From: Candidatus Heimdallarchaeota archaeon
GTDB taxonomy: Archaea; Asgardarchaeota; Heimdallarchaeia; Heimdallarchaeales; Heimdallarchaeaceae
Assembly: GCA_021399395.1 (NCBI GenBank)
Contig: JAAFKJ010000087.1
Location: 1 to 25,759 of the forward strand
Direction of reading: 5' to 3'
Length of the DNA stretch: 25,759 nucleotides
In this document: one piece after another, positions 686 through 19,631 of the stretch
Numbering within the stretch: position 1 is the first letter of the stretch
Layout of the letters: the number at the start of each line of letters is the position of its first letter
Made by a program: the position numbers and the translations under genes
The notes under the pieces: model-generated
The model's input: the letters and a program-made list of their open reading frames with translations, nothing else
Databases searched by the model: none
What the model was told of the DNA's origin: nothing

Positions 686-3600
686 TTATCTTTTTGTAAA
701 TGAAGAAAATTGTGTTCGCTCTAAAATCCCTTTGTTTACAAGTCTGAATACGCTAGTAAGTGTTTCTTCCATTGGTGAATCTTGGTTTTTTGTGAGAAGT
801 TCGCTAACAGCTGCTTGTTCTTTCTTCTTCATATAAAGAGCAATTCTCAAATCATTTTTGTCTAATTTCTTTATTTCTCCAGTTTTTGCCTGATTAAATC
901 TAAGTGGGAAATATAACCATACATACAAAGAATCAGCTACTTTATCTTGAACTAAGTGCTTCTTCTCTTGAAACATCTCTATTCTTCCATCCCAAATAAC
1001 CTCTTTTATTTGGAAACTGTATTCGAACCACATTATTATATCAAACAATTTAGCTTGAACTTCCTTGATTATGTCTTCAGCAGTGAAAAGATAGATGGTA
1101 TATGTTTCAGATCTTGCGCTACTAACTACGAAGTTTCTATATTCAAGTTTTCGTATTTCTCCCGCTTCTGTCCCACTAATTGTTCTCCCCATTTGTGTTA
1201 CTGCTGCTAAGAAACCAGACACCAATGTTGATTCAACTGCGGATTTCTCGCCTATGTCCACTTCGAAAACTGGAAGGCTTGTTTCTGTATGCAAAATCAG
1301 TACTTTCTTCATCGCAAGCACACTATCTAGAAGACCTACAACTTTCGATTTATCTTGAATATCCATAATTTCAGAAGGTTTTCTTCTATGAGATATTACA
1401 GTAGCCATAATAGCTATTATGGTTACTACCACAAATGCAGATCCAGCAATAATGAGTATCACATACAATGGTAATGGGGGCTGCGCACCAGCAGTAACGT
1501 CAACTGCGAAACTAACAGAGATTATTTCTTCCGCATATGAAGCTTTGAAGTTTTCTTTAGTGACATCCAAAGATATGCTAGCATGTCCTGATGTAATTCC
1601 ATAATCAGCTAATTTCACGCTTACATAAATAACTCCGCTTTGGTTTGAAACAGAATAAAACTCATTAGATACTGGATTGTTGTTGATTTTTAGTGAAATT
1701 GAATCAGGTAGAATTGAACCTTTCATTATATCTGTTTCATTGATTATACTGAATGCCAAAATTACTTCTTCAGAATTGTTTGTTTCTATATTCTGCTGAA
1801 CTGGTTGAATACTATATACGTTGAAAATTTCAACTTGAATATCTACCATTTCTTGAATACTCCATGAATCATTTACTGTTAATGTTACAGTTCTCAAACC
1901 AGCTGTAGTAAGTATTGGAACAGCTCCACTAAACTCAAGTGGGTATTCGTCAAGATATCCTTCAAGATTCCAACTAGTTAAGTAACCTATACTTGCATTT
2001 TCGATTGGAGTACCAAATTCTGTGAAGAAAGGTTCAGTGTTAGAGAAGAATGAAGCTTTGACATTTAATGCATCGCCATTCATTCTTAGAATAGTCTGAG
2101 AGTCATCAGCTGTCCAGACATCACTTGAAGGGAGGGTTTCCCAAGAAGCATTAAAGATGATTGAAGATTGGATAGAAATTTTGGTAGAGTATATTCCTAT
2201 CTCTGTTCCATTTTCCCAGAACACAAATGCAGTCCAGTAACCAACGGGGTCACTTCCATAAACAGAAGGATCCAAAGAAATGTCTGAGGTATACAAACCT
2301 GAGCCACTTGATGTAATCCCTGCTTGTGTATAAGATGAAGTATCTGTGTAAGATAAATTGACTGGTAAAGAAGATTTGATAGGAAGAATATTTCCTTCAG
2401 GATCAAATAAAGTAAAGTTTAGATCGCCTGTATCTTCTAAGTTCTTAATATTAATTGACGCATAAACTGTATCACCCTCATTCCCATAAGCAGTGACACC
2501 GTCATTAGTCCAGTAACCTAGAGTAAATTCTTCACTAAGACCAATGTCATCAGATAGCGATAGGGTTTGAATATAATTCGGACTACTCGTATGAAGGTCA
2601 ATAATACCAGCATCAGTATTATTCCCTAACAGTAAGAGATACCCTTCAGAAGTTTGTGCTTTTGAGGATATTGGTGTTGAGTTGTAGTAAGCGTTTGGAA
2701 CATCATACCAATCTGCTGGTGTATAAAGAAGTTGAGTTCTATTGAAATTAGTGTATGGAGAATAGTCGACAGATTCTATGTTCCAAGTAAAATTCCAGTA
2801 AATTGAGAAAGAATCAAAAGTCGAATTATAGGCTTCAAAAATTGAAGAAGCTACCGCATCATTATAGAATGCGTAAACGTTAGTAAAATCTATCTCAATA
2901 GATGTATCTGACGTAATATTATGTGATCCAGCAGAAGAGATAGAATCAGTAAAAGTATTGACAGCTACTAAATTATCTTCAAGAGTAATTTCGTCTAAGT
3001 CAGGAAAAACCATTGCTGTACCATTTTCATCTACAGGTAACATATCTAAAATTAAAGTATGATCTATCGGAATCAAAGAAGACCAAGTAAAAGTATCATC
3101 TCTATAATAGGTGTCTCCACCAAATCCTGAACTTTTTAAGCGTCCTCTCCAACTAAACAATTTTTGAGCAGAATCATCCCATACTGTGAGATTTGCAACT
3201 ATAAAATAGAATCCTTGCTCCAAAGTAACATCATTAAAATCATAATAGGTTGTGACTCCTGGAGAAGTTAATGGATTTACTACATTGTATGAACTATTAA
3301 CATCACTTGAGATAACATTGCTCATATTTGGTTTTCCAGATGAAGTTTCAGCCTTAACAAGAAGAAGTTCTAGTTCATTATTTCCGGTGTGAGCAACATC
3401 TCCAAAAAGATCTAGATTCAAATAGGCTCCATAAAAAGTGGCATTTGACCATATTATTTCAAAACCTTGTGCAATTGCTATTACAGATGGATCAATTATG
3501 ACTTGTTCATCATCAAATAAATCTTCAATTGTATAATTATCTTGTTTTGCTCTAACTTCCGTTATTCCATACTGTAAATTTTCAGCTGTAAAACCTGATA

Positions 3601-3931
3601 TAAGGTCTATTGTATAATCAGATACAAATTTATCCTCGATATCATCATAAGTTAGATTCAAGCTGAAATCATGGTCTACTGTTAGTCTGTCTCTTGCTGT
3701 AAAAGTCGAACCCATATCTGAAACGTTTGTTACAGGATTGTAAGCATTCATTGAATATTCTGAGATATCATTAGAAGTATCTCTAGAGTAAATTGTGTCT
3801 GAAATTGGAAACTCACTATTAAATTGATTAGAATCAGCTGCTTGTAGTGATATACTACTATAGAGCATCACACCGATTATAAAACTGACAAATAATTTTC
3901 TTGAATTTATTTTACTCCTCGAGTTTCTCAT
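686..3931 (-). CDS. Large single-pass (type I) membrane protein: signal peptide, ~790-aa acidic S/T/D/N-rich ectodomain, TM helix, cytoplasmic longin-like plus winged-helix-like region
   Basis: 1081 aa. N-terminal hydrophobic stretch LFVSFIIGVMLYSSISLQA; many N-x-S/T sequons; TM PLYVILIIAGSAFVVVTIIAIMATVIS followed by HRRK; C-terminal region KKVLILHTETSLPVF...LVSGFLAAVTQMG...IRKLEYRNF resembles longin/roadblock-like domains. Confidence 0.8.
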   Translation of the reverse strand: MRNSRSKINSRKLFVSFIIGVMLYSSISLQAADSNQFNSEFPISDTIYSRDTSNDISEYSMNAYNPVTNVSDMGSTFTARDRLTVDHDFSLNLTYDDIEDKFVSDYTIDLISGFTAENLQYGITEVRAKQDNYTIEDLFDDEQVIIDPSVIAIAQGFEIIWSNATFYGAYLNLDLFGDVAHTGNNELELLLVKAETSSGKPNMSNVISSDVNSSYNVVNPLTSPGVTTYYDFNDVTLEQGFYFIVANLTVWDDSAQKLFSWRGRLKSSGFGGDTYYRDDTFTWSSLIPIDHTLILDMLPVDENGTAMVFPDLDEITLEDNLVAVNTFTDSISSAGSHNITSDTSIEIDFTNVYAFYNDAVASSIFEAYNSTFDSFSIYWNFTWNIESVDYSPYTNFNRTQLLYTPADWYDVPNAYYNSTPISSKAQTSEGYLLLLGNNTDAGIIDLHTSSPNYIQTLSLSDDIGLSEEFTLGYWTNDGVTAYGNEGDTVYASINIKNLEDTGDLNFTLFDPEGNILPIKSSLPVNLSYTDTSSYTQAGITSSGSGLYTSDISLDPSVYGSDPVGYWTAFVFWENGTEIGIYSTKISIQSSIIFNASWETLPSSDVWTADDSQTILRMNGDALNVKASFFSNTEPFFTEFGTPIENASIGYLTSWNLEGYLDEYPLEFSGAVPILTTAGLRTVTLTVNDSWSIQEMVDIQVEIFNVYSIQPVQQNIETNNSEEVILAFSIINETDIMKGSILPDSISLKINNNPVSNEFYSVSNQSGVIYVSVKLADYGITSGHASISLDVTKENFKASYAEEIISVSFAVDVTAGAQPPLPLYVILIIAGSAFVVVTIIAIMATVISHRRKPSEIMDIQDKSKVVGLLDSVLAMKKVLILHTETSLPVFEVDIGEKSAVESTLVSGFLAAVTQMGRTISGTEAGEIRKLEYRNFVVSSARSETYTIYLFTAEDIIKEVQAKLFDIIMWFEYSFQIKEVIWDGRIEMFQEKKHLVQDKVADSLYVWLYFPLRFNQAKTGEIKKLDKNDLRIALYMKKKEQAAVSELLTKNQDSPMEETLTSVFRLVNKGILERTQFSSFTKR

Positions 3932-4061: not shown

Positions 4062-4742
4062 CTATCTCTTATCAAATTCAAAAAAAGTCTGTGTAAATTG
4101 GTCAGAGGTAGCTATTATGATGAACTCCTTTTCAACAAGTTTGAAAATCAATGTCAATAACTCTTCATGCGTATAGTCATCAAACTCATTCATCAATCTC
4201 ATTATAGATGTCTGTTTGTGTTCAGCAAAGTGTGCCAAGATTTCTCTCAACAATGAGCTCTCACTCTCTATTTCAGCTAACTTTGAAATATCAATTTCAA
4301 GTGGATAGAGAAGCCATAAACTGAAGAGATGAGTAATCTTGTCCAATATACTCATCTTGTAGTAGTCTGAAAATTCTCTTGAATAATCTCCTTCGGAACT
4401 ATCAAATCCGAAAACTAAATCAAACCATCTAACTATATCGCTGACCTTCACTCCAACATCACTTAACATTTCTCTCTCACAGAAAAGATAAGCTGAGTAA
4501 GAGCTGTAACTTCCACAATAGACAACAAACCCATAATATTTAATCAAACGCACGTCAGCAATTGAACCAATTATCTCTACCTCTTGTGGTTCTTGATTTT
4601 CGAGAATATCACAGATAATAGATGGATCCAAAGTGATTTCACTATTCATATCCATTTCAAAAAGAGGTAGGCATTGTTCATGTTGAACTACAAGAATTTT
4701 CCTTATCATGAAGACATCTTGGAGTATTTTATCATATTCCAT
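4062..4742 (-). CDS. Stand-alone longin-like plus winged-helix-like protein, paralogue of the cytoplasmic region of 686..3931
   Basis: RKILVVQHEQCLPLFEMD...DIVRWFDLVF...LFSLWLLYPL...IFKLVEKEFI aligns by eye with KKVLILHTETSLPVFEVD...DIIMWFEYSF...LYVWLYFPL...VFRLVNKGIL. Confidence 0.75.
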   Translation of the reverse strand: MEYDKILQDVFMIRKILVVQHEQCLPLFEMDMNSEITLDPSIICDILENQEPQEVEIIGSIADVRLIKYYGFVVYCGSYSSYSAYLFCEREMLSDVGVKVSDIVRWFDLVFGFDSSEGDYSREFSDYYKMSILDKITHLFSLWLLYPLEIDISKLAEIESESSLLREILAHFAEHKQTSIMRLMNEFDDYTHEELLTLIFKLVEKEFIIIATSDQFTQTFFEFDKR

Positions 4743-5748: not shown

Positions 5749-6486
5749 CTATCTATCATCTGAAGAAGTTTCAATATATCCGTCTATTACTAGATTGAAT
5801 ATTTCATAAAGAATTTTTTCTTCATCATATTCTTTGTATCCATCTAAAATACGTGCAGCAGTACATCTCAAATTTTTCTCAATACATTCGAAAATTAATT
5901 TTGCAGTGTCAGATATCCTTCCTTTATCCAAGGTCTGATCTTTTGATGTTTGCAAAGGATAGAGTAACCATAAAAACAGATTTTGAGCAATTTTACTTTT
6001 AATAATTGCTCTACTCATCTTGTAAACATCCAACGATCCATCCCAATTGTCTCTCAAAGAACTAAAGGTAGCGCTAAACCATTGAACTAAATCTTGCATG
6101 CCCTGTTCTATCTCCTTAACCAATTCCGTTTCAGAGAAGACATAGACAGTAAATCCTTCACAATATGCCCCAGTAATCACAAAACCATGATACTGCAGTT
6201 TTTTGAACCCAGTTGGTCTGCCAACCATTTCTTGCCCTATTGTTGAGATAGCTTGTAGAATGCTAGTAATCATTGCATCTTCAATGGTTACTGTATTTTC
6301 TATGTCCCTTACAAAAACAGGTAAGCTTGTCTCTTGATGGACAATGAGAACTTTATGTATCATAAAAACTGTTTGATAAATATCTCTAAGTTTATTCTTC
6401 TGTTGATATTCAGTATCAACACTGCTAATTGTATCAGTCACTTTTGAACCCCAAATAGATTTCCCAATCCAAGAAAGTAGTAACAT
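5749..6486 (-). CDS. Stand-alone longin-like plus winged-helix-like protein (third paralogue)
   Basis: HKVLIVHQETSLPVF...MITSILQAISTIGQEM...FKKLQYHGF...WDGSLDVY...LFLWLLYPL...IFNLVIDGYI, clearly similar to 686..3931 C-terminus and to 4062..4742. Confidence 0.8.
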   Translation of the reverse strand: MLLLSWIGKSIWGSKVTDTISSVDTEYQQKNKLRDIYQTVFMIHKVLIVHQETSLPVFVRDIENTVTIEDAMITSILQAISTIGQEMVGRPTGFKKLQYHGFVITGAYCEGFTVYVFSETELVKEIEQGMQDLVQWFSATFSSLRDNWDGSLDVYKMSRAIIKSKIAQNLFLWLLYPLQTSKDQTLDKGRISDTAKLIFECIEKNLRCTAARILDGYKEYDEEKILYEIFNLVIDGYIETSSDDR

Positions 6487-13163: not shown

Positions 13164-13361
13164 GTGAAAGGCACAATTAAAAGAATTATGTATGATAGAA
13201 ACTTTGGTTTTATCCAAGTTGAAGGAGAAGAAGACGACATCTTTTTCCACAGATCCGGAACTAAAGGAGAGTTCCAAGATCTTAAAGAAGATTCTGAAGT
13301 CGAATTCGAAATTGAAGAAACCGATAGAGGTAAGCAAGCCACAAACGTGGAAGCTGTTTAG
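13164..13361 (+). CDS. csp: Cold-shock domain protein (CspA family), copy 2
   Basis: GTG start after AGGAGG; first 23 residues identical to copy 1; RNP1 and RNP2 motifs present. Confidence 0.95.
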   Translation: MKGTIKRIMYDRNFGFIQVEGEEDDIFFHRSGTKGEFQDLKEDSEVEFEIEETDRGKQATNVEAV

Positions 13362-13503: not shown

Positions 13504-14754
13504 TCACACTAATTTTATGCGAATATATAAATCAACTTCCTGCTTATTTTTCAAGACCCCACTAACATAGAAAGTCTCATAATTACGGATGCCTTGCTCT
13601 CCTAAGGTTAAATCCAATTTTACTTCTTCAGGATCTTTCTTATCTATTTTCCAGAAAGATGGTAAAAAGTCTAAATTATATTCATATCCCTTATTCTTAA
13701 TTATTGAAAGAATGTTTTCAACAGTTGTTGATCTTGGAAGTTTTAATCTTTCAATTAAAGCTGCGTTTTTACCACAAAGAACACATTTCTTATTTGGAGG
13801 TTTTTCGAAGTAGAAAAACTTACCAACCAAGCCATTATAAATTACGTATTCAGCATTTACAGTACCTAGTTCAATTCCCTTCACATGATGCAAAAGTTTC
13901 AGTGCTTCTTGCGATTGAAGTGATGCAATTACAGCATTTATCGTAATAATAGTAGGATCATGTTGATCTACCATCTTGACTACTTCGTCAATAGAGAACA
14001 GGTTTTCTTTTGGAAAATGCTCTTTAGTTAGGTTATTTGCATAGTTCAAAACAACTTTCATTTCAGCTTGAACACCTGTATCTGGTGGTCTATTATGTTT
14101 CGATTCAAAGTATAATTGTCCTTTCAATAGACAATGTGATCTTTTTCTTGGGATTCCTACAAGAGTACATGCTGCTAATGTTTCTCTTTCTCTCTCAGGT
14201 TGTGGGTCACATTGAAGACATGCATTTTGCCCTGGAAGGTATGTATAGACATGTCCATAATACGTTACTGTCCCTCCATCTATCAAGGGTTTCTTATAAT
14301 GAACAGCTCTTCTGTTGAGTTCTCCTCTTGCAGTTACTGAATCCAAACCCGAGATTAACAAATCAGCTGAAACATAGATTTCTGGATCAACATCTTCTAG
14401 ATTTGAATGATGCCAGATGTATCTACAATAAGGATTTATTCGTTTAAGAGTTCTTGCTGCAACTCTAGATTTAGGTTCTCCTTCATCGGCATCAGAAAAT
14501 AAAATTTGTCTATTTAGATTTGAGTATTCAATTATATCTAAATCTATTAGATGTAATGTTCCAACACCAGCCATTGCAAGATTCTTCGCAACTTCAGTCC
14601 CTAAACCACCAATTCCTACAATGACGACTGTAGAATCTTTCAAAGCTTTCTGATTCCATCCAGGTAATCTTAGTTGTCTATCAAATCTTTTTCTTTCTTC
14701 TTTTGAAAATGTCTCATCAAAAAAATTAGACTTGTTTTCTTTGTTTTTACTCAT
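13504..14754 (-). CDS. Ubiquitin-like activating enzyme E1 (ThiF/UBA family, UBA3/UBA2-like architecture)
   Basis: RFDRQLR, GIGGLG, DLDIIEYSNLNRQILF, PLIDGGT; Zn pairs CLQC and CVLC; catalytic Cys region AACTLVGIPRKRSHC; C-terminal ubiquitin-fold-like domain (TTVENIL...LTLGEQGI). Confidence 0.93.
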   Translation of the reverse strand: MSKNKENKSNFFDETFSKEERKRFDRQLRLPGWNQKALKDSTVVIVGIGGLGTEVAKNLAMAGVGTLHLIDLDIIEYSNLNRQILFSDADEGEPKSRVAARTLKRINPYCRYIWHHSNLEDVDPEIYVSADLLISGLDSVTARGELNRRAVHYKKPLIDGGTVTYYGHVYTYLPGQNACLQCDPQPERERETLAACTLVGIPRKRSHCLLKGQLYFESKHNRPPDTGVQAEMKVVLNYANNLTKEHFPKENLFSIDEVVKMVDQHDPTIITINAVIASLQSQEALKLLHHVKGIELGTVNAEYVIYNGLVGKFFYFEKPPNKKCVLCGKNAALIERLKLPRSTTVENILSIIKNKGYEYNLDFLPSFWKIDKKDPEEVKLDLTLGEQGIRNYETFYVSGVLKNKQEVDLYIRIKLV

Positions 14755-14802
14755 TATTGTACATCTCTTAGGATTCTATTTAACATAAATTATTCTTGTT
14801 TT

Positions 14803-14856
14803 TGAAAAAATGAAAAGAAAGGAGAAACTATTTTCTTTCAAAAAGAAAAATAGTTT
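14803..14856 (-). terminator. Hairpin plus U-rich tract between the Ubl and E1 genes
   Basis: Imperfect inverted repeat AAACTATTTTCTT/AAGAAAAATAGTTT (14825-14856), followed on the minus strand by CTCCTTTCTTTTCATTTTTTC. Confidence 0.5.
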
Positions 14857-14860
14857 TAGT

Positions 14861-15220
14861 TTATCCAGCTGTTGAGACAGGGATAAGTAGAATAGTGTCT
14901 CCGTCTTCCACTCCATAATCTGCTAATGTATCGTCAGGATCGCAGGTTCTTCCAGCATGTGACAAGTGAAATTCATCTGGAGGTAATCCAAAGATTTGAC
15001 TGACAGTATATTTGATATCACCAACGGGCGCATCAGTAGCTACGACAAGCTTTTCCTGTTTTGGACTTGGTCCAATTGTACTTTGGAAATAAACGCTAAT
15101 CTTCTTACTTGCAGGAGTCTTAGACTTTTCAGGAGTTTTAGAGATAATTTCGTCTTCTAATACCTCTTCTTCTTCTTCTTCAAAAGATAATTCTTCAAAT
15201 TCTTCGCTCATTTTTATCAT
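14861..15220 (-). CDS. Ubiquitin-like protein with acidic N-terminal extension, ending ...STAG
   Basis: GLPPDEFHLSHAGRTCDPDDTLADYGVEDGDTILL aligns with ubiquitin [35 protein letters not shown]; adjacent to E1. The true start may be the second Met (15211). Confidence 0.92.
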   Translation of the reverse strand: MIKMSEEFEELSFEEEEEEVLEDEIISKTPEKSKTPASKKISVYFQSTIGPSPKQEKLVVATDAPVGDIKYTVSQIFGLPPDEFHLSHAGRTCDPDDTLADYGVEDGDTILLIPVSTAG

Positions 15221-15454
15221 TCCTAGTTTAATACAACATGTGTATATCTGTTTGGAATATTAAAAAATTACCCTTTTAGGTATAAAAAACATTCTTATTT
15301 AGTAAGATAAATTAGAAAAACAGATTGATAGTATCTAAAAATCTATAAAACACATTGAATATATCCTAAAATGGGAATAATCAGTTACAATTAGATGTAA
15401 AAAATTGAGTTGTTAAGTAATCTATGAAAGGCAAACTAAGAGTGTGACTTACAG

Positions 15455-16183
15455 ATGAATGATAAAAACAAAAAGAAACGACCTTCATCCAAGAAACCGA
15501 GGCAAAAAATCCCTATAGATTCGAAGATACCTCAACAAAAAAAACCATCTAGCAAAATACCGAAACAAAGAGTTAGCGATGAAGACCTGTTACCACCAAG
15601 AAGACAGAGATCTAAAAAAGAAACTCCTGCCCCTAGTAAGTCAAGGCTAAGACAAGATGAGATAAGAAAATCAAACAAAGGAGTAGCTAAACAAGAAATT
15701 TACACTAAGAAACCAAAAGGAGAGAGATTTGTTGATCAACAGAAGAGAAGTAAGGGTATTCCGAAACAGAAGATTCCCAAAACTAAAATCCCAAAACAGG
15801 ATCAATTAGACGAAGCTAAAGAGAAGAATATCGTTCCAGAGGATGAAGAAACAAGGAAAAAAGAAAAGCGAGAATCTATTCCACCAAGGAGGGAAAAGTT
15901 CAAAGAAATAGAAACTCTAGATTCAAAAGCTGTTGAGAAGGAAGAGAGAGAGAAGAAAGAAGATCATCCTCCTGCAAACAACAAAGACCAATTTTCTGAA
16001 ACTCAGAAGCATGAATCAAAGGCTTTACCCAAAGATGAAAGAGTAAGAGAGAAAAAGGAAAGAGAAGCACCAGCTGCTAGAGAAATTAGTGAGATTATTG
16101 AGGAGAAGCGTCCTACTCAAAAAACTCCTAGTCAAAAATATCCTCAACAGACTAAAAGACCTAAACAAAAGAAACCTAAGTGA
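15455..16183 (+). CDS. Lys/Glu/Arg/Pro/Gln-rich low-complexity, probably disordered protein with KIPKQ-like repeats
   Basis: 242-aa ORF almost lacking hydrophobic core residues; repeats SKIPQQK, SKIPKQR, KGIPKQKIPKTKIPKQ. Confidence 0.7.
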   Translation: MNDKNKKKRPSSKKPRQKIPIDSKIPQQKKPSSKIPKQRVSDEDLLPPRRQRSKKETPAPSKSRLRQDEIRKSNKGVAKQEIYTKKPKGERFVDQQKRSKGIPKQKIPKTKIPKQDQLDEAKEKNIVPEDEETRKKEKRESIPPRREKFKEIETLDSKAVEKEEREKKEDHPPANNKDQFSETQKHESKALPKDERVREKKEREAPAAREISEIIEEKRPTQKTPSQKYPQQTKRPKQKKPK

Positions 16184-16212
16184 TGGTCCTTTTGTTAAAG
16201 CATTTTTTCAGT

Positions 16213-16806
16213 TCACACAAATAGCATTAAGAGTGAAGAATAGAAATAAACTACTGCAAATACCATCAAGAAGAGATTCTCTAAGAGGAATATAGATGTT
16301 AAAATGTAGGTTGTTGGTATAATCAACAGGAGTAGAAAACCAAAAAGTTTAGGAGGGATTCCTTTTTCACTTGTGCCTTTCATTCTGATGAAAGGATATC
16401 TGATGAAAGTTCTGAATATTAGAAAATTGCTGAAGATGTAGTAAGGTAATAGAATGAAATCCACAATATTAATGTAAAAATAATATGTGGTAGTACCAAC
16501 ATCAAAAGTACTTGTCGAAATTAAGTTTGAACCATAATCATAAATTCCTAGAAGAAATTGAGTAAGAACAACAATCACAGGAATTAGCGGGACAATTAAC
16601 ACAAAAAAAACTTCGTTGAATGTAGCATTGTGTTTAAGATAGTATATACTTCGTATCATAATGAATAGTGTTAGAAAAGCAAATATTGCTGCCATTATGA
16701 AAATCTTCCCCATATCACTGTTTTCTTCTATGAAGAAATAGATAGATACACCTATCAACGATAAAGAAATAAGAAACGCAGTGGAGAGTTGTGTAATGGT
16801 TCTCAA
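16213..16806 (-). CDS. Multi-pass membrane protein (~6 TM), RING-less paralogue of the membrane domain of 17198..18328
   Basis: TTG start after AAGGTG; hydrophobic throughout; shares SD, YxKHN, FxLxxP, NxxxxxLxP and PxI...G motifs in the same order as the RING protein. Confidence 0.78.
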   Translation of the reverse strand: MRTITQLSTAFLISLSLIGVSIYFFIEENSDMGKIFIMAAIFAFLTLFIMIRSIYYLKHNATFNEVFFVLIVPLIPVIVVLTQFLLGIYDYGSNLISTSTFDVGTTTYYFYINIVDFILLPYYIFSNFLIFRTFIRYPFIRMKGTSEKGIPPKLFGFLLLLIIPTTYILTSIFLLENLFLMVFAVVYFYSSLLMLFV

Positions 16807-17038
16807 AGTAACACCTTCTTCTTTTATAGTTCTTACATCCTAATTTTTAAATTATTGTATATGTTTTTTTTGGCATTTTACTATTCTTTTATGGGTTTAT
16901 ATACTCAATTAGCTTTCGATAAATAGAGAGGATTTACATCTTAAAAAGCCTATGCGACCACCTCCAATTGGATTGTGGTCAAGCTTAAAAAGAAGATGAA
17001 TCCAACTCAAAAACAACTATCTATATATGAGAAAGTTC

Positions 17039-17104
17039 CAAGCGATCCGAAAACCGTACCTAAACGTACGGTGAACGGGGTAGGAGGGTATGTGATGTAC
17101 CCCC
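17039..17104 (+). repeat. Structured intergenic element copy A (candidate ncRNA or REP/MITE-like repeat)
   Basis: GC-rich CAAGCGATCCG-[ACCGTAC/GTACGGT hairpin]-GAACGGGGTAGGA-[GGGTAT/GTACCC hairpin]; homologous to 20493-20555. Confidence 0.65.
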
Positions 17105-17197
17105 GTAGAATTTGTGAGGACCATAGGGAATGACACACACAACGTCTACGAAATGGCTCAACTATATTTGACTAATATGCAAACATGACTAGTCACA

Positions 17198-18328
17198 TCA
17201 TAGCTTCTCAATCACTTTCTCTATATAGATTTTTACAGTTACACGATATTTTGGATTATTAACGTATCTAGTTGAGATAGGTTGATTACATCTTGCACAC
17301 AATCTAGATTTCTGGAACCAGTTAAGAAATTCATCTTCATGTGCTGGATATTTGCAATTAGGACATAGTATTATTTTTCTTGATTCTTTTTTATTAAAAT
17401 CCATATAACAAATAATACATTTCATCTCTTCTTTCTTTGGAGTACCAATTGGAAACATGCTTTTAGTAACAGTAGTTGTGGTTTTAGTAGTCTTTACCAT
17501 TTTTCTTTTCGATGATGGTACGTCAATACCTGGGGCAACTCTAGCGGAAGAGGTAGTACTTCTAGTAGCTCTCCTTGTAGTAGACCTAGAAGTTGTTGAA
17601 GTGCTTCTGGATCTTGTTGGTACAGACCTTGTCCCACTTCTCGAAGATGCTGTAACTTGACCTCTTCTTCGAGTTGCACTTGAAGATCCTGTTGAGGTAG
17701 TTCTTCTTGTAGAACTTCTTGCTGAGACTGTTACCTCTCTTCGTGACTTATTAAATGCAACAATAACAAAATATCTGAAAATGTAAACTAAGTATAATAT
17801 AACAAAGATGAAACAAACAAAATCTATTTGCCAATTGATAAAGAAACCAATCAAGAATGTCAGAATAAAGAAAGAATGGAGCAAGAAAGGAATTTTTTTA
17901 CCTCTATTTATTTTTCTGTTGATAGCAATTCCAGGCCATTTTCCTGAATAGAACTTACTGAAGAATATGGAGAGGATAATTACAGGAACTATCAAAGAGA
18001 TAGAAATTAAATTGAAGAACATTAGTTCCGAACCTCCACTTGACCGAATTGTGAAGATTTCAACAGTTAATGCAACAGGAGAGATGTAGTTTCCCATTAG
18101 CAAGACTGCATAAGGGAGTAGTAGAAATTGACTACTAGCTAAAATGGAGTTGTGTTTCTTATAGTGTCGTCTTTCCAGGAGAAATTTTAGAGCTGCTACT
18201 GTATACAGTGTAATAAAGAAAATCATTAACGTTGTTGCCAAGTCACTTTGAATAATTAGATATAGAATCCCTACGGTTAAACCTACAATTGATATCGCTA
18301 AGTAGGTTTTCCAATTATTCAATTCCAA
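17198..18328 (-). CDS. Multi-pass membrane RING-variant protein (putative E3 ligase)
   Basis: About 6 N-terminal TM helices, a long S/T/R-rich linker, and C-terminal CIIC-x14-CPNC-x3(KYPA)H-EDEF-LNW-x6-CARC; immediately downstream of E2 and JAMM genes. Confidence 0.85.
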   Translation of the reverse strand: MELNNWKTYLAISIVGLTVGILYLIIQSDLATTLMIFFITLYTVAALKFLLERRHYKKHNSILASSQFLLLPYAVLLMGNYISPVALTVEIFTIRSSGGSELMFFNLISISLIVPVIILSIFFSKFYSGKWPGIAINRKINRGKKIPFLLHSFFILTFLIGFFINWQIDFVCFIFVILYLVYIFRYFVIVAFNKSRREVTVSARSSTRRTTSTGSSSATRRRGQVTASSRSGTRSVPTRSRSTSTTSRSTTRRATRSTTSSARVAPGIDVPSSKRKMVKTTKTTTTVTKSMFPIGTPKKEEMKCIICYMDFNKKESRKIILCPNCKYPAHEDEFLNWFQKSRLCARCNQPISTRYVNNPKYRVTVKIYIEKVIEKL

Positions 18329-18350
18329 CTTTATACATCTCTAAATTCTT

Positions 18351-19070
18351 TTAATCCTTATTCAGCTTATTTTTCATGAACATGTTAATTGACTCAAAAC
18401 ATGCTTCACTGCTCATGCCTTTAATCTCGCAAGAAAGTTCATAGTAATTCTTTCTATCTCGATGAATTCGAAATACTCCTACCCCATAATTATCTGGAGC
18501 AATCATCAGGGGGTCGATGACTAGAGCTATTGACTTATTCCAAAATGTCTGATATCTACGATGTGTTTGGAAGTCATCACCACTGAGAAATGGTGTATAA
18601 CTTGGATGTGAATGAGCCCAACCTATGATAAAATGTTCGTTATCTTTTTTATTGAATATTTCAGTGAAAATCCTTTGATCTACTATCTCTACACTTACAG
18701 CATCACCTTGGTCAACAGGCCAATAGTCTTCAACATACACCTGTTCTAATGGAGTATCTTCGTGTCGTATTTTACCTGTCAATAGGCCTATAATTTCTAC
18801 CCACTCACTTTTTGGGATTCCCTTGTTAGCATAGGTTAAGGAATGTTTAGCAAGTTTGAGATAGGCTTTAGGATTTATCATTATTTCAGATCTTGTTTGT
18901 ATTTGAAGTGCTTCTTCTGTTATTGATTCAACACTAATGTCCTCTGAACTTTCTACTTGATCTTCAAAGATTTCATCTATTTTATGAAGACCTAGTGCTT
19001 TTTCTATTGCTTCAACTTTTTTCAAAAGAATTTTGTATTCTTCTGGAAGATTGTCTTCTTCTTTTCCCAT
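18351..19070 (-). CDS. JAMM/MPN+ metallo-isopeptidase (Rpn11/CSN5-like)
   Basis: VEIIGLLTG (catalytic Glu), GWAHSHPSYTPFLSGDD (HxH-x7-S-x2-D), ALVIDP; GGTGA SD upstream. Confidence 0.93.
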   Translation of the reverse strand: MGKEEDNLPEEYKILLKKVEAIEKALGLHKIDEIFEDQVESSEDISVESITEEALQIQTRSEIMINPKAYLKLAKHSLTYANKGIPKSEWVEIIGLLTGKIRHEDTPLEQVYVEDYWPVDQGDAVSVEIVDQRIFTEIFNKKDNEHFIIGWAHSHPSYTPFLSGDDFQTHRRYQTFWNKSIALVIDPLMIAPDNYGVGVFRIHRDRKNYYELSCEIKGMSSEACFESINMFMKNKLNKD

Positions 19071-19100
19071 TTTTTAATCACCTAAATTTGTGAAGAGTTT

Positions 19101-19631
19101 TTACCAGAAAGACTTTGCATATTTCTTGCTGATAGTATTTGCTTTTTTAATGAATTTCTTCTTATTATTTAAAAATTCCAAAGCAGCTTCTTTATTGAAA
19201 ACATCCTTTGGATTAACATAAGCTCCATCTATATTGAACATAGCTAGAATTGAGTGTACAACTGTAGTGATATTCTTTGCAGGTGACCATCCATCATGTT
19301 TTCCTATTAACTCATTGTCAACTAGAGCGAGACAAATGTTACGCTTCTTTGGATATTCTTTAGGATTTGGCCAGAAATTAGGATGCCAAATTGGTGTATG
19401 TAGTCTTACAAATGGAGGTTTCATAGGATAATTTGGTCCAAAGAATATCTCCAACTTATATTTTCCTCCAGCATATGGAGTGCCTTTTGGACCTACAAAC
19501 CCGACTGCAAGATGATCCATAGACTTCTTCTTTACAGGAAAAGATTTAACTTGAGCTATTATCCCTTCTTTGTGCAATTTTCTAAGTGCATCATAGTCTT
19601 TTATTACGCGCTGTTTTCGCATTATTGCCAC
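19101..19631 (-). CDS. Ubiquitin-conjugating enzyme E2 (UBC fold)
   Basis: GPKGTPYAGGKYKLEIFFGPNYPMKPP, TPIWHPN, catalytic ICL, WSPA, NKEAA. Confidence 0.95.
   Translation of the reverse strand: MAIMRKQRVIKDYDALRKLHKEGIIAQVKSFPVKKKSMDHLAVGFVGPKGTPYAGGKYKLEIFFGPNYPMKPPFVRLHTPIWHPNFWPNPKEYPKKRNICLALVDNELIGKHDGWSPAKNITTVVHSILAMFNIDGAYVNPKDVFNKEAALEFLNNKKKFIKKANTISKKYAKSFW

Follow-up and report, generated by a model that had tools for sequence, protein, structure and literature searches.

A ubiquitin-like protein ending in Ala-Gly and the operon of a probable second conjugation pathway in Asgard archaea

A ubiquitin-like gene in a row of conjugation genes

We analysed a stretch of 25,759 nucleotides from a Heimdallarchaeota genome (contig JAAFKJ010000087.1 of assembly GCA_021399395.1; this whole stretch is referred to as the window), which encodes a ubiquitin-like protein (Ubl) that ends in Ala-Gly (AG) where canonical ubiquitin ends in Gly-Gly (GG). 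The gene lies within 13504-19631 in a minus-strand row that encodes a conjugating enzyme (E2), a JAB metalloprotease, a membrane protein of 376 amino acids, a membrane protein of 197 amino acids, the Ubl and an activating enzyme (E1). [quoted passage not shown] The features of the locus are as follows.

14861..15220, minus strand: Ubl gene, 119 amino acids, coordinates including the stop codon (open reading frame list; Pfam ubiquitin, E 3.4e-8)
15104..15220, minus strand: N-terminal arm of the Ubl, residues 1-39, with an acidic F-E-E-L motif, a poly-Glu run and two S-K-T-P repeats; predicted to be disordered
14879..15103, minus strand: beta-grasp (ubiquitin) fold of the Ubl, residues 40-114 (AlphaFold2 and Foldseek)
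14864..14878, minus strand: C-terminal tail V-S-T-A-G, ending in Gly119, the predicted reactive residue (conservation and predicted E1 interface)
13504..14754, minus strand: E1, 416 amino acids; ThiF adenylation domain, Cys-bearing insert and C-terminal domain (Pfam ThiF, 3e-57)
15455..16183, plus strand: Lys-rich protein, 242 amino acids, with six K-[I/T]-P motifs (motif counts); divergent, between the 197-amino-acid membrane protein and the Ubl
16213..16806, minus strand: multi-pass membrane protein, 197 amino acids, no family assigned (tblastn match in 19 of the 79 loci described below)
17198..18328, minus strand: membrane protein, 376 amino acids, with a C-terminal RING-like zinc domain (residues ~290-376, bases 17201-17461)
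18351..19070, minus strand: JAB/MPN metalloprotease, 239 amino acids, Rpn11-like, with the JAMM motif HSHPSYTPFLSGDD (Pfam JAB, 2.1e-12)
19101..19631, minus strand: E2, 176 amino acids; UBC fold with HPN...Cys (Pfam UQ_con, 1e-27)

The protein and its fold

The sequence of the 119-residue Ubl is MIKMSEEFEELSFEEEEEEVLEDE...ILLIPVSTAG, and the next codon is the stop TAA. Because many homologues start with MSEEFEEL, the second ATG (M4, base 15211) may be the true start, and on this comparison a protein of 116 residues beginning there is a probable alternative. Pfam PF00240 matches residues 60-112 above its cut-off (33.6 bits versus 25.4) and is matched by all 57 family members considered. With 57 relatives as input, AlphaFold2 models residues 40-114 confidently as a ubiquitin fold, with a block predicted local distance difference test score (pLDDT) of 92-95, and residues 1-36 mostly below 50. 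Foldseek places this model closest to the ubiquitin of Caldiarchaeum subterraneum (6fno_D, E 1.1e-8, 30% identity), with eukaryotic ubiquitins next. The neighbourhood of the Ubl in the ESM Atlas consists only of archaeal ubiquitin-family clusters (0.95-0.96); the best eukaryotic cluster, at 0.87, is a lead only.

The HMMER alignment to ubiquitin sets S87 at I44, R91 at K48, D106 at K63 and I113 at V70, and P114-V-S-T-A-G119 takes the place of L71...G76. The original prediction, made from the letters of the window, had arrived at the same mapping by hand (I44 to S, K48 to R, K63 to D), with Ala at G75 and no equivalents of R72 and R74, and had described an acidic N-terminal arm; both are borne out, the arm being conserved in the family as well as mostly of low pLDDT. 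When the Ubl is aligned with the canonical ubiquitin of the same genome, ILLIPVSTAG stands opposite CYLIARTKGG.

The Ala-Gly end is a family trait

A word-indexed database search returned 94 homologues of the Ubl; those that have a source name are assigned to Heimdallarchaeota or Kariarchaeaceae. The motif P-[VAI]-S-[TI]-A-G is present in 92 of the 94 and none ends in GG; the two without the motif are P0076, which ends in ..STADAF, and the fragment P0090. A genomic scan of one genome per species gave 353 pattern matches, 306 of them encoding Ubl relatives, from which 79 loci were kept. All 79 carry P[VA]S[TI]AG (42 ASTAG, 35 VSTAG, 1 VSIAG and 1 ASIAG), and they span Heimdall-, Loki/Promethearchaeota, Hod-, Hermod-, Odin-, Sigyn- and Sifarchaeum, with the complete Lokiarchaeum ossiferum genome among them. 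The family alignment (A2) shows no variation at A118 or G119.

A HMMER pass over 1.84 billion cluster representatives yielded 443 matches at E up to 1e-10 and a list of 149 new proteins. Among the matches listed, all 36 short family representatives, which share less than 50% mutual identity, keep x-A-G, and the residues before it vary (PSSTAG, PHSTAG, PSSRAG, PISLAG and others). The other 113 new proteins listed are longer than 400 amino acids and contain many ubiquitin repeats each, so that their scores are sums. Across 301 sampled Asgard genomes the Ubl profile matches 123, with up to five copies per genome, and the matches are concentrated in nine GTDB families: 22/28 genomes in the source genome's own family, 60/68 in the family f14 and 0/76 in the family f11. 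Two assignments look out of place: an operon contig filed under a Nanopelagicaceae bacterium metagenome-assembled genome (L062), and one filed under a Thorarchaeota genome of the same kind (L026), which is 83% identical to the Heimdall protein. Both probably reflect mis-binning.

A majority of GG ends among the homologues was the outcome that the original prediction had named as telling against it, and what we found is Ala-Gly in 79/79 loci, 92/94 homologues and 36/36 short representatives. An origin of the Ala-Gly end by sequencing error, or by a strain-specific mutation of a GG ubiquitin, can practically be dismissed, given that the same motif recurs in loci from many assemblies and in the database proteins; no support for such an origin was found and we rejected it. 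We also found no description of an Ala-Gly-ended Asgard Ubl in the full-text literature, a search that did not extend to subscription papers, and a prior mention is possible.

A canonical Gly-Gly ubiquitin in the same genome

Pfam ubiquitin matches two genes in the source genome, which is 82% complete. Beside the Ubl gene there is the following.

Contig C180 (locus L082 2793-10113): GG ubiquitin, 78 amino acids, ending in RTKGG-S, adjoining an E1 of 335 amino acids

Its neighbours on this contig are two Snf7 genes, Vps4, ESCRT-II, EAP30 and a UEV-Vps23-Vps28 fusion, and the accessible part of an earlier study describes a ubiquitin-ESCRT locus of this make-up for Heimdallarchaeota (PMC9192718). 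A gene for a Ras-family small GTPase was seen just beyond the locus. Of 12 homologues of the GG ubiquitin, 11 have GG followed by 0-2 residues at their end and one is truncated.

The AG and GG proteins of the source genome give no alignment with each other in BLASTP, and their identity in a MAFFT alignment is 25%. The E1 genes differ as well. After its conserved Cys, the E1 of the AG operon has ~45 residues that are missing from the ESCRT-linked E1, and the latter aligns to eukaryotic E1s over the adenylation part only, where UBA3 and UBA1 score about equally. Elsewhere in the genome there are another E2 gene (117 bits), another JAB gene and a short MoeB/ThiF-type gene (contig C136), so two full enzyme sets are available. 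The presence of the GG ubiquitin with a second E1 in the same genome indicates that the AG Ubl belongs to a second, parallel Ubl pathway. The separate Ubl class that had been raised as a possibility from the window therefore gains substance from an Ala-Gly end invariant across the Asgard family, its own E1, E2, JAB and RING genes, the GG ubiquitin in the same genome and the failure of the two to align in BLASTP.

Coexistence extends to related genomes. The genus is represented by 22 genomes, and the same 20 of them have both the AG profile match and two Pfam ubiquitin matches. Inspection of the sequences identified one GG type (..QAGG-Y) and one AG type in Lokiarchaeum ossiferum, one GG and three AG types in a second Loki genome, and one of each in Heimdall AB_125. 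In a tree of the AG and GG domains (48 rows and 79 columns; 36 AG, 11 Heimdall GG and 1 Loki GG), the Heimdall GG clade separates at 100/100.

Enzymes encoded with the Ala-Gly protein

Near the Ubl gene in the 79 loci we identified the E1 in 63, the E2 in 54, the JAB protein in 52 and the RING membrane protein in 48, with all four present in 48. Loci of the Loki type have the one-strand order Ubl-E1-E2-JAB-RING. The catalytic motifs are intact: the E1 signature AAC[TS] is found in 59/59 homologues and both Cys pairs in 58/59, the E2 motif HPN-x-Cys in 52/52, and the JAMM motif in 49/50 JAB homologues, the one miss being a truncated open reading frame.

The best solved relative of the E1 is UBA3, the NEDD8 E1 subunit (4.3e-35, residues 40-354), followed by UBA1 and SAE2, with UBA5 at 4e-14; the alignment with UBA3 takes in the insert after the conserved Cys. 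For the JAB protein, the best is the Rpn11 of Caldiarchaeum (1.4e-13), then eukaryotic RPN11, AMSH-LP and CSN5. These assignments bear on the idea that the Ubl is a sulfur carrier or a SAMP/Urm1-type protein served by a ThiF-like E1 in thiocarboxylate chemistry. The E1 does have a ThiF domain, its best NCBIfam matches, all sub-threshold, are to MoeB/ThiF, and one tandem representative of the Ubl has a weak ThiS match. A sulfur carrier is nonetheless highly implausible: Pfam ubiquitin is matched in 57/57 members, the E1 aligns to UBA3 over 40-354 with the insert after the Cys, a separate short ThiF/MoeB-type gene is available on contig C136, and the operon, with its E2, RING-like protein and Rpn11-like JAB, is unlike an E1-only context.

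The E2 has UBE2T, UBE2N and UBC9 as solved relatives (about 1e-15 to 1e-13). Its residues 83-101, from the HPN motif to the catalytic Cys, read HPNFWPNPKEYPKKRNIC and are identical in the four Heimdall-type examples compared. This stretch looks longer than in textbook E2s and could be a substrate-reading loop.

AlphaFold2 models the 376-residue protein as helices at 6-202 and a disordered linker rich in Arg, Ser and Thr at 200-287, followed at 290-376 by a beta-beta-alpha domain of high confidence. The pattern C-x2-C...C-P-x-C-x4-H-x2-E-x3-W...C-x-R-C is present in 48/48 full-length homologues, and the invariant ligand positions are C304, C307, C322, C325, H330, C344 and C347. On the model, we call the domain RING-like with reserve, as the assignment is weak.

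The Ubl, the E2, the RING membrane protein, the 197-residue membrane protein and the Lys-rich protein are all without an NCBIfam model, and the last two have no Pfam match either. A gene for a cold-shock-domain protein (Pfam CSD, 1.8e-17) at 13164-13361 on the plus strand adjoins the E1 gene, and is matched near the operon in 11/79 loci.

Predicted binding of the Ubl by the E1

A model of the complex of E1, ATP and Ubl scored 0.79; of 3 controls, the highest-scoring reached 0.00. Agreement between the runs covers at least 78% of contacts, and the partner pLDDT is at least 73. The predicted interface joins Ubl residues 48-53, 82-95 and 111-119 to E1 residues 47-52 (the Gly-rich nucleotide loop), 136-140 and 160-168, and coincides with the family-invariant residues T48, G50, P51, S87, G90, T92, L111-P114, S116, A118 and G119. 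The arm is outside the confident interface. The model supports E1 binding through the Ubl tail and the invariant residues.

Tailed precursors, tandem units and fusions

The statement of the original prediction that there is no C-terminal propeptide holds for this gene, which stops right after Gly119, but not for the family: AG is followed by 1-7 residues in 34/79 loci and by 1-13 residues in 57/92 motif-bearing homologues, the tails being unconserved in both sets. Some family members are multimers. P0095 consists of three complete tandem units and P0096 of two; every unit has an acidic arm of its own and is joined to the next directly after AG, and P0138 is a fragment across such a junction. 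Polyubiquitin precursors have the same head-to-tail layout. Units joined in this way imply an endoprotease that cuts after Ala-Gly, and we take AG to mark the processing site of the family on the basis of these sequences.

The AG-ended domain also occurs as the C-terminal part of other proteins (P0154, P0190, P0124 and P0133/P0136/P0144/P0146/P0165/P0178/P0195/P0237). The fusion partners are a HerA-like ATPase, a CDC48_N and VWA protein, a protein with a weak Roadblock/LC7 match, and a recurrent zinc-ribbon and coiled-coil protein. K-T-P motifs are found in the linkers of these fusions. Loci of the Loki type (L043 7339-8133, minus strand; L091) encode, between two AG-Ubl genes, a membrane protein whose C-terminal domain is ubiquitin-like and related but lacks the terminal Gly (..ALIPSR..); a winged-helix protein was seen beside it.

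Domains at the ends of larger proteins, among them the HerA-like ATPase, the CDC48_N and VWA protein and the zinc-ribbon coiled-coil protein, together with the related Gly-less domain of the Loki-type membrane protein and the Ser at the I44 position, might suggest an adaptor that is never conjugated and binds non-covalently in the manner of UBL-domain shuttle proteins, its binding motif being the arm. We consider this very unlikely. The terminal Gly is invariant and is at the end, or within 13 residues of it, even in the fusions; tandem precursors exist; the adjacent E1, E2 and JAB proteins have intact catalytic motifs; and the predicted E1 interface follows the tail to the nucleotide loop at E1 residues 47-52.

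A lysine motif in the arm and in neighbouring proteins

We examined the arms of 165 family members in which the arm is at least 20 residues long. The median arm has 40 residues, 11 of them acidic and 5 basic. F-[DEN]-[DEN]-[LFI] is present in 121/165 arms; among the remaining 44, a majority show F-D-E-[ED]-L, a form longer by one residue. The number of K-[ITV]-P motifs is exactly two in 129/165.

The same motif is abundant in the Lys-rich protein encoded next to the Ubl, which has 6 copies compared with a mean of 0.72 in shuffled sequences (0/5000 shuffles reach 6). Genome-wide, at least 3 motifs are present in 7/2951 open reading frames, among which this neighbour ranks first, and its homologues have 5-10 motifs in 16/16 complete Heimdall-type neighbours. 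At least three K-[T/I/V]-P motifs are found in 51 of the 1014 open reading frames of the 79 loci. Grouped by coordinates, these are 16 copies of the Lys-rich neighbour, 28 of a Loki-type coiled-coil protein, 3 Ubl genes and 4 others. The coiled-coil protein (338-399 amino acids) is encoded divergently upstream of the Ubl genes and has 3-8 motifs compared with ~0.2 expected, often with T-K-T-P-S near the C-terminus; the example at L043 5674-6711 (minus strand) has a like open reading frame in 27 other Loki-type loci, and one further copy is cut by a contig end. BLASTP detected no homology between the Heimdall Lys-rich and the Loki coiled-coil neighbour (best E 5.2).

The presence of one lysine motif in the arm of the modifier and in unrelated neighbours of two lineages points to a role within the system, as an acceptor or docking site. 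The Lys-rich protein is a candidate substrate or docking partner, judging from its motifs. The original prediction had proposed a non-degradative modifier, either mono-conjugated or chained through its arm, and the conserved K-[T/I/V]-P lysines of the arm make chaining through the arm a concrete hypothesis and nothing more. We speculate further that K-[T/I/V]-P is an acceptor-lysine consensus read by the E2 or the RING protein, that chains are linked through the arm, and that the motif-rich neighbours are dedicated multi-site membrane substrates. Together with Ala-Gly as an identity determinant, this would amount to a SUMO-like, consensus-directed system that arose in archaea before eukaryotes and independently of the link between ubiquitin and ESCRT. 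We regard this larger proposal as doubtful.

Comparison with described systems

An archaeal ubiquitin operon with E1, E2, RING and JAMM genes is a known kind of system. The operon of Caldiarchaeum subterraneum encodes the same five activities together (ubiquitin, E1, E2, RING and Rpn11-like JAMM) and, in the accessible parts of its description, shares with the present one a precursor trimmed to its terminal Gly and an E1 with a Cys-bearing insert. As far as those parts go, nine residues follow the Gly-Gly of its ubiquitin and an N-terminal arm is absent, whereas the Ubl has Ala-Gly and an acidic, K-T-P-bearing arm; and its ligase is a small soluble RING finger protein, whereas here the 87 C-terminal RING-like residues are tethered by a linker to a multi-helix membrane domain.

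The similarity raises the possibility that the Ubl is a Caldiarchaeum-type archaeal ubiquitin for proteasome marking, in which Ala-Gly is a neutral, tolerated variant. The gene set matches the Caldiarchaeum operon of ubiquitin, E1, E2, RING and Rpn11-like JAB as described in the excerpts available to us (PMC5654768, PMC6043591), the ubiquitin and Rpn11 of that organism are the closest solved structures of the Ubl and the JAB protein, and Rpn11 still cuts an Ala-Gly mutant, if slowly, according to the accessible text of PMC6043591. A neutral variant would drift, however, and the Ala is fixed in 79/79 loci and in representatives below 50% identity. The same genomes have a separate GG ubiquitin with its own E1, to which the AG Ubl of the source genome does not align in BLASTP, and the conserved arm and the RING membrane anchor are without counterpart in the Caldiarchaeum system as described in those excerpts. 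We therefore hold this reading to be unlikely, and prefer that of a modifier with a pathway of its own.

The ESCRT-linked Asgard ubiquitin shares organisms, fold, a ThiF-type E1 and sometimes a propeptide of 1-4 residues with the Ubl, as seen in the available parts of PMC9192718 and bioRxiv 10.1101/2023.07.25.550441. Unlike the AG Ubl, it ends in GG, has 77-79 amino acids and no arm, and is encoded among ESCRT genes.

SUMO has a Gly-Gly end, a two-subunit E1 and a flexible N-terminal arm with an acceptor lysine in a consensus motif. The Ubl may resemble it in having a ubiquitin fold after an arm predicted to be flexible, with lysines in a short recurring motif, and the Pfam family Rad60-SLD matches 49/57 Ubl members weakly (E up to 1). 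The differences are the single E1 gene in the operon, the Ala-Gly end, and K-[T/I/V]-P instead of the SUMO consensus. In NEDD8 a residue of the tail (position 72) keeps the modifier distinct from ubiquitin, and the best solved relative of the E1 over nearly its whole length is UBA3; NEDD8 itself has a Gly-Gly end and no arm, and no cullin-type target is evident in the AG system.

UFM1 has a single mature terminal Gly after a small hydrophobic residue and a short propeptide, and its E1 is of the UBA5 type and its E2 of the UFC1 type, without the HPN motif. The Ubl resembles UFM1 in this terminus and in its short propeptides. The original prediction had pointed to UFM1, ATG8 and ATG12 for their single-Gly termini, and kinship on this ground is not supported: Pfam Ufm1 (PF03671) matches 0/57 Ubl members at E up to 1 and 0/301 Asgard genomes at E up to 0.001. 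The E1 is of the UBA3/UBA1 kind, with a far weaker match to UBA5 than to UBA3 (4e-14 versus 4e-35), and the E2 has the HPN motif. The Asgard Ufm1 homologue visible in the accessible part of the PMC12962969 supplement is a Ufm1-UFC1 fusion of another orthologous group. On these grounds kinship with UFM1 was rejected.

The AG system differs from every described member that we found in its Ala-Gly end, conserved arm, tandem precursors, RING-like membrane tether and motif-rich neighbours, and in being a separate family that coexists with a GG ubiquitin.

Proposed pathway

Starting from the observed fold, conservation, gene context, catalytic motifs and coexistence of two systems, we infer a cascade in which every enzymatic step, the insulating role of the Ala and the targeting to membranes are proposed by likeness to the Caldiarchaeum system. 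In the accessible parts of its description that system has been reconstituted, with Rpn11 trimming the precursor and the E1, E2 and RING protein carrying out conjugation (PMC5654768, PMC6043591). Here, the Rpn11-like JAB protein would cut tailed or tandem precursors after Ala-Gly. The UBA3-like E1 would bind the beta-grasp domain through the T48-P53 loop, the S87-T92 face and the L111-G119 tail, adenylate Gly119 and then carry the Ubl on its Cys. The E2 would receive the Ubl on the Cys of its HPN-Cys site, and the membrane-anchored RING-like protein may direct it onto lysines of membrane targets, a mark that the JAB protease might also reverse. The disordered acidic arm would be a conserved functional appendage, with its F-acidic-L motif and two K-[T/I/V]-P lysines. 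Covalent attachment to substrate lysines is indicated indirectly, by the adjacent E1, E2, RING and JAB genes with their intact motifs and by the score of the complex model.

The invariant penultimate Ala, together with Pro114 and the loss of the Arg72 and Arg74 equivalents, may act as an identity determinant against the enzymes of GG ubiquitin. In Caldiarchaeum ubiquitin, according to the excerpts of PMC6043591 available, a change of the penultimate Gly to Ala is cut by Rpn11 far more slowly than a mutant of the last Gly, and Val at this position blocks cleavage. This slow cleavage makes a fixed Ala a plausible insulator of co-resident cascades.

A number of points weigh against such a pathway. 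By the same partial account of Caldiarchaeum, the Ala-Gly end could simply make a poorer protease substrate, unless the cognate JAB protein has adapted to it. No E1 lies near the Ubl in 16/79 loci, some of which are on short contigs, and two Ubl copies (L060 and L074), with ~6-7 kb of flank on each side, appear to be solitary. For the RING-like domain, the top Foldseek matches are nearly all RING/U-box, at E 0.04 or weaker, the Pfam RING matches are below cut-off, and there are seven clear ligands, not eight. The mark used for the complex model is reached by 58/80 solved complexes and 2/110 mismatched pairs, counts that hold only roughly here because our job used its own alignments and ATP; and as solved E1-Ubl complexes exist, the pass may reflect likeness to them. 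In the tree of AG and GG domains, the Loki GG row has a long branch (9.85) and lands among the AG rows, so that the tree leaves the monophyly of the AG family relative to all GG types unsettled. Finally, counts across related genomes are not independent, and gene counts in the source genome are lower bounds given its 82% completeness.

Other observations in the window

By eye, a domain of ~200 residues (...VLIVHQETSLPVF...) is common to three minus-strand genes at 686-3931 (in the C-terminal part), 4062-4742 and 5749-6486. One copy ends a surface-type protein of 1081 amino acids, and Pfam has no match in any of the three proteins. For 13504-15300, no RNA run is listed; the seven runs that are listed are of DNA, from sediment and cold-seep metagenomes.

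Implications

The diversification of Ubl proteins into ubiquitin, SUMO, NEDD8 and others is thought to be eukaryotic. The gene content described here suggests that Asgard archaea already have at least two separate ubiquitin-type cascades per cell, one of the GG type linked to ESCRT and one of the AG type with its own enzymes and polyprotein precursors. The small size of the components and the presence of the operon in Lokiarchaeum ossiferum (L049) make the AG system directly testable at the bench. It offers a natural experiment on how tail residues keep cascades apart, and bears on the role of a membrane-anchored RING ligase before the endoplasmic reticulum existed and on whether the motif-directed choice of lysines predates SUMO.

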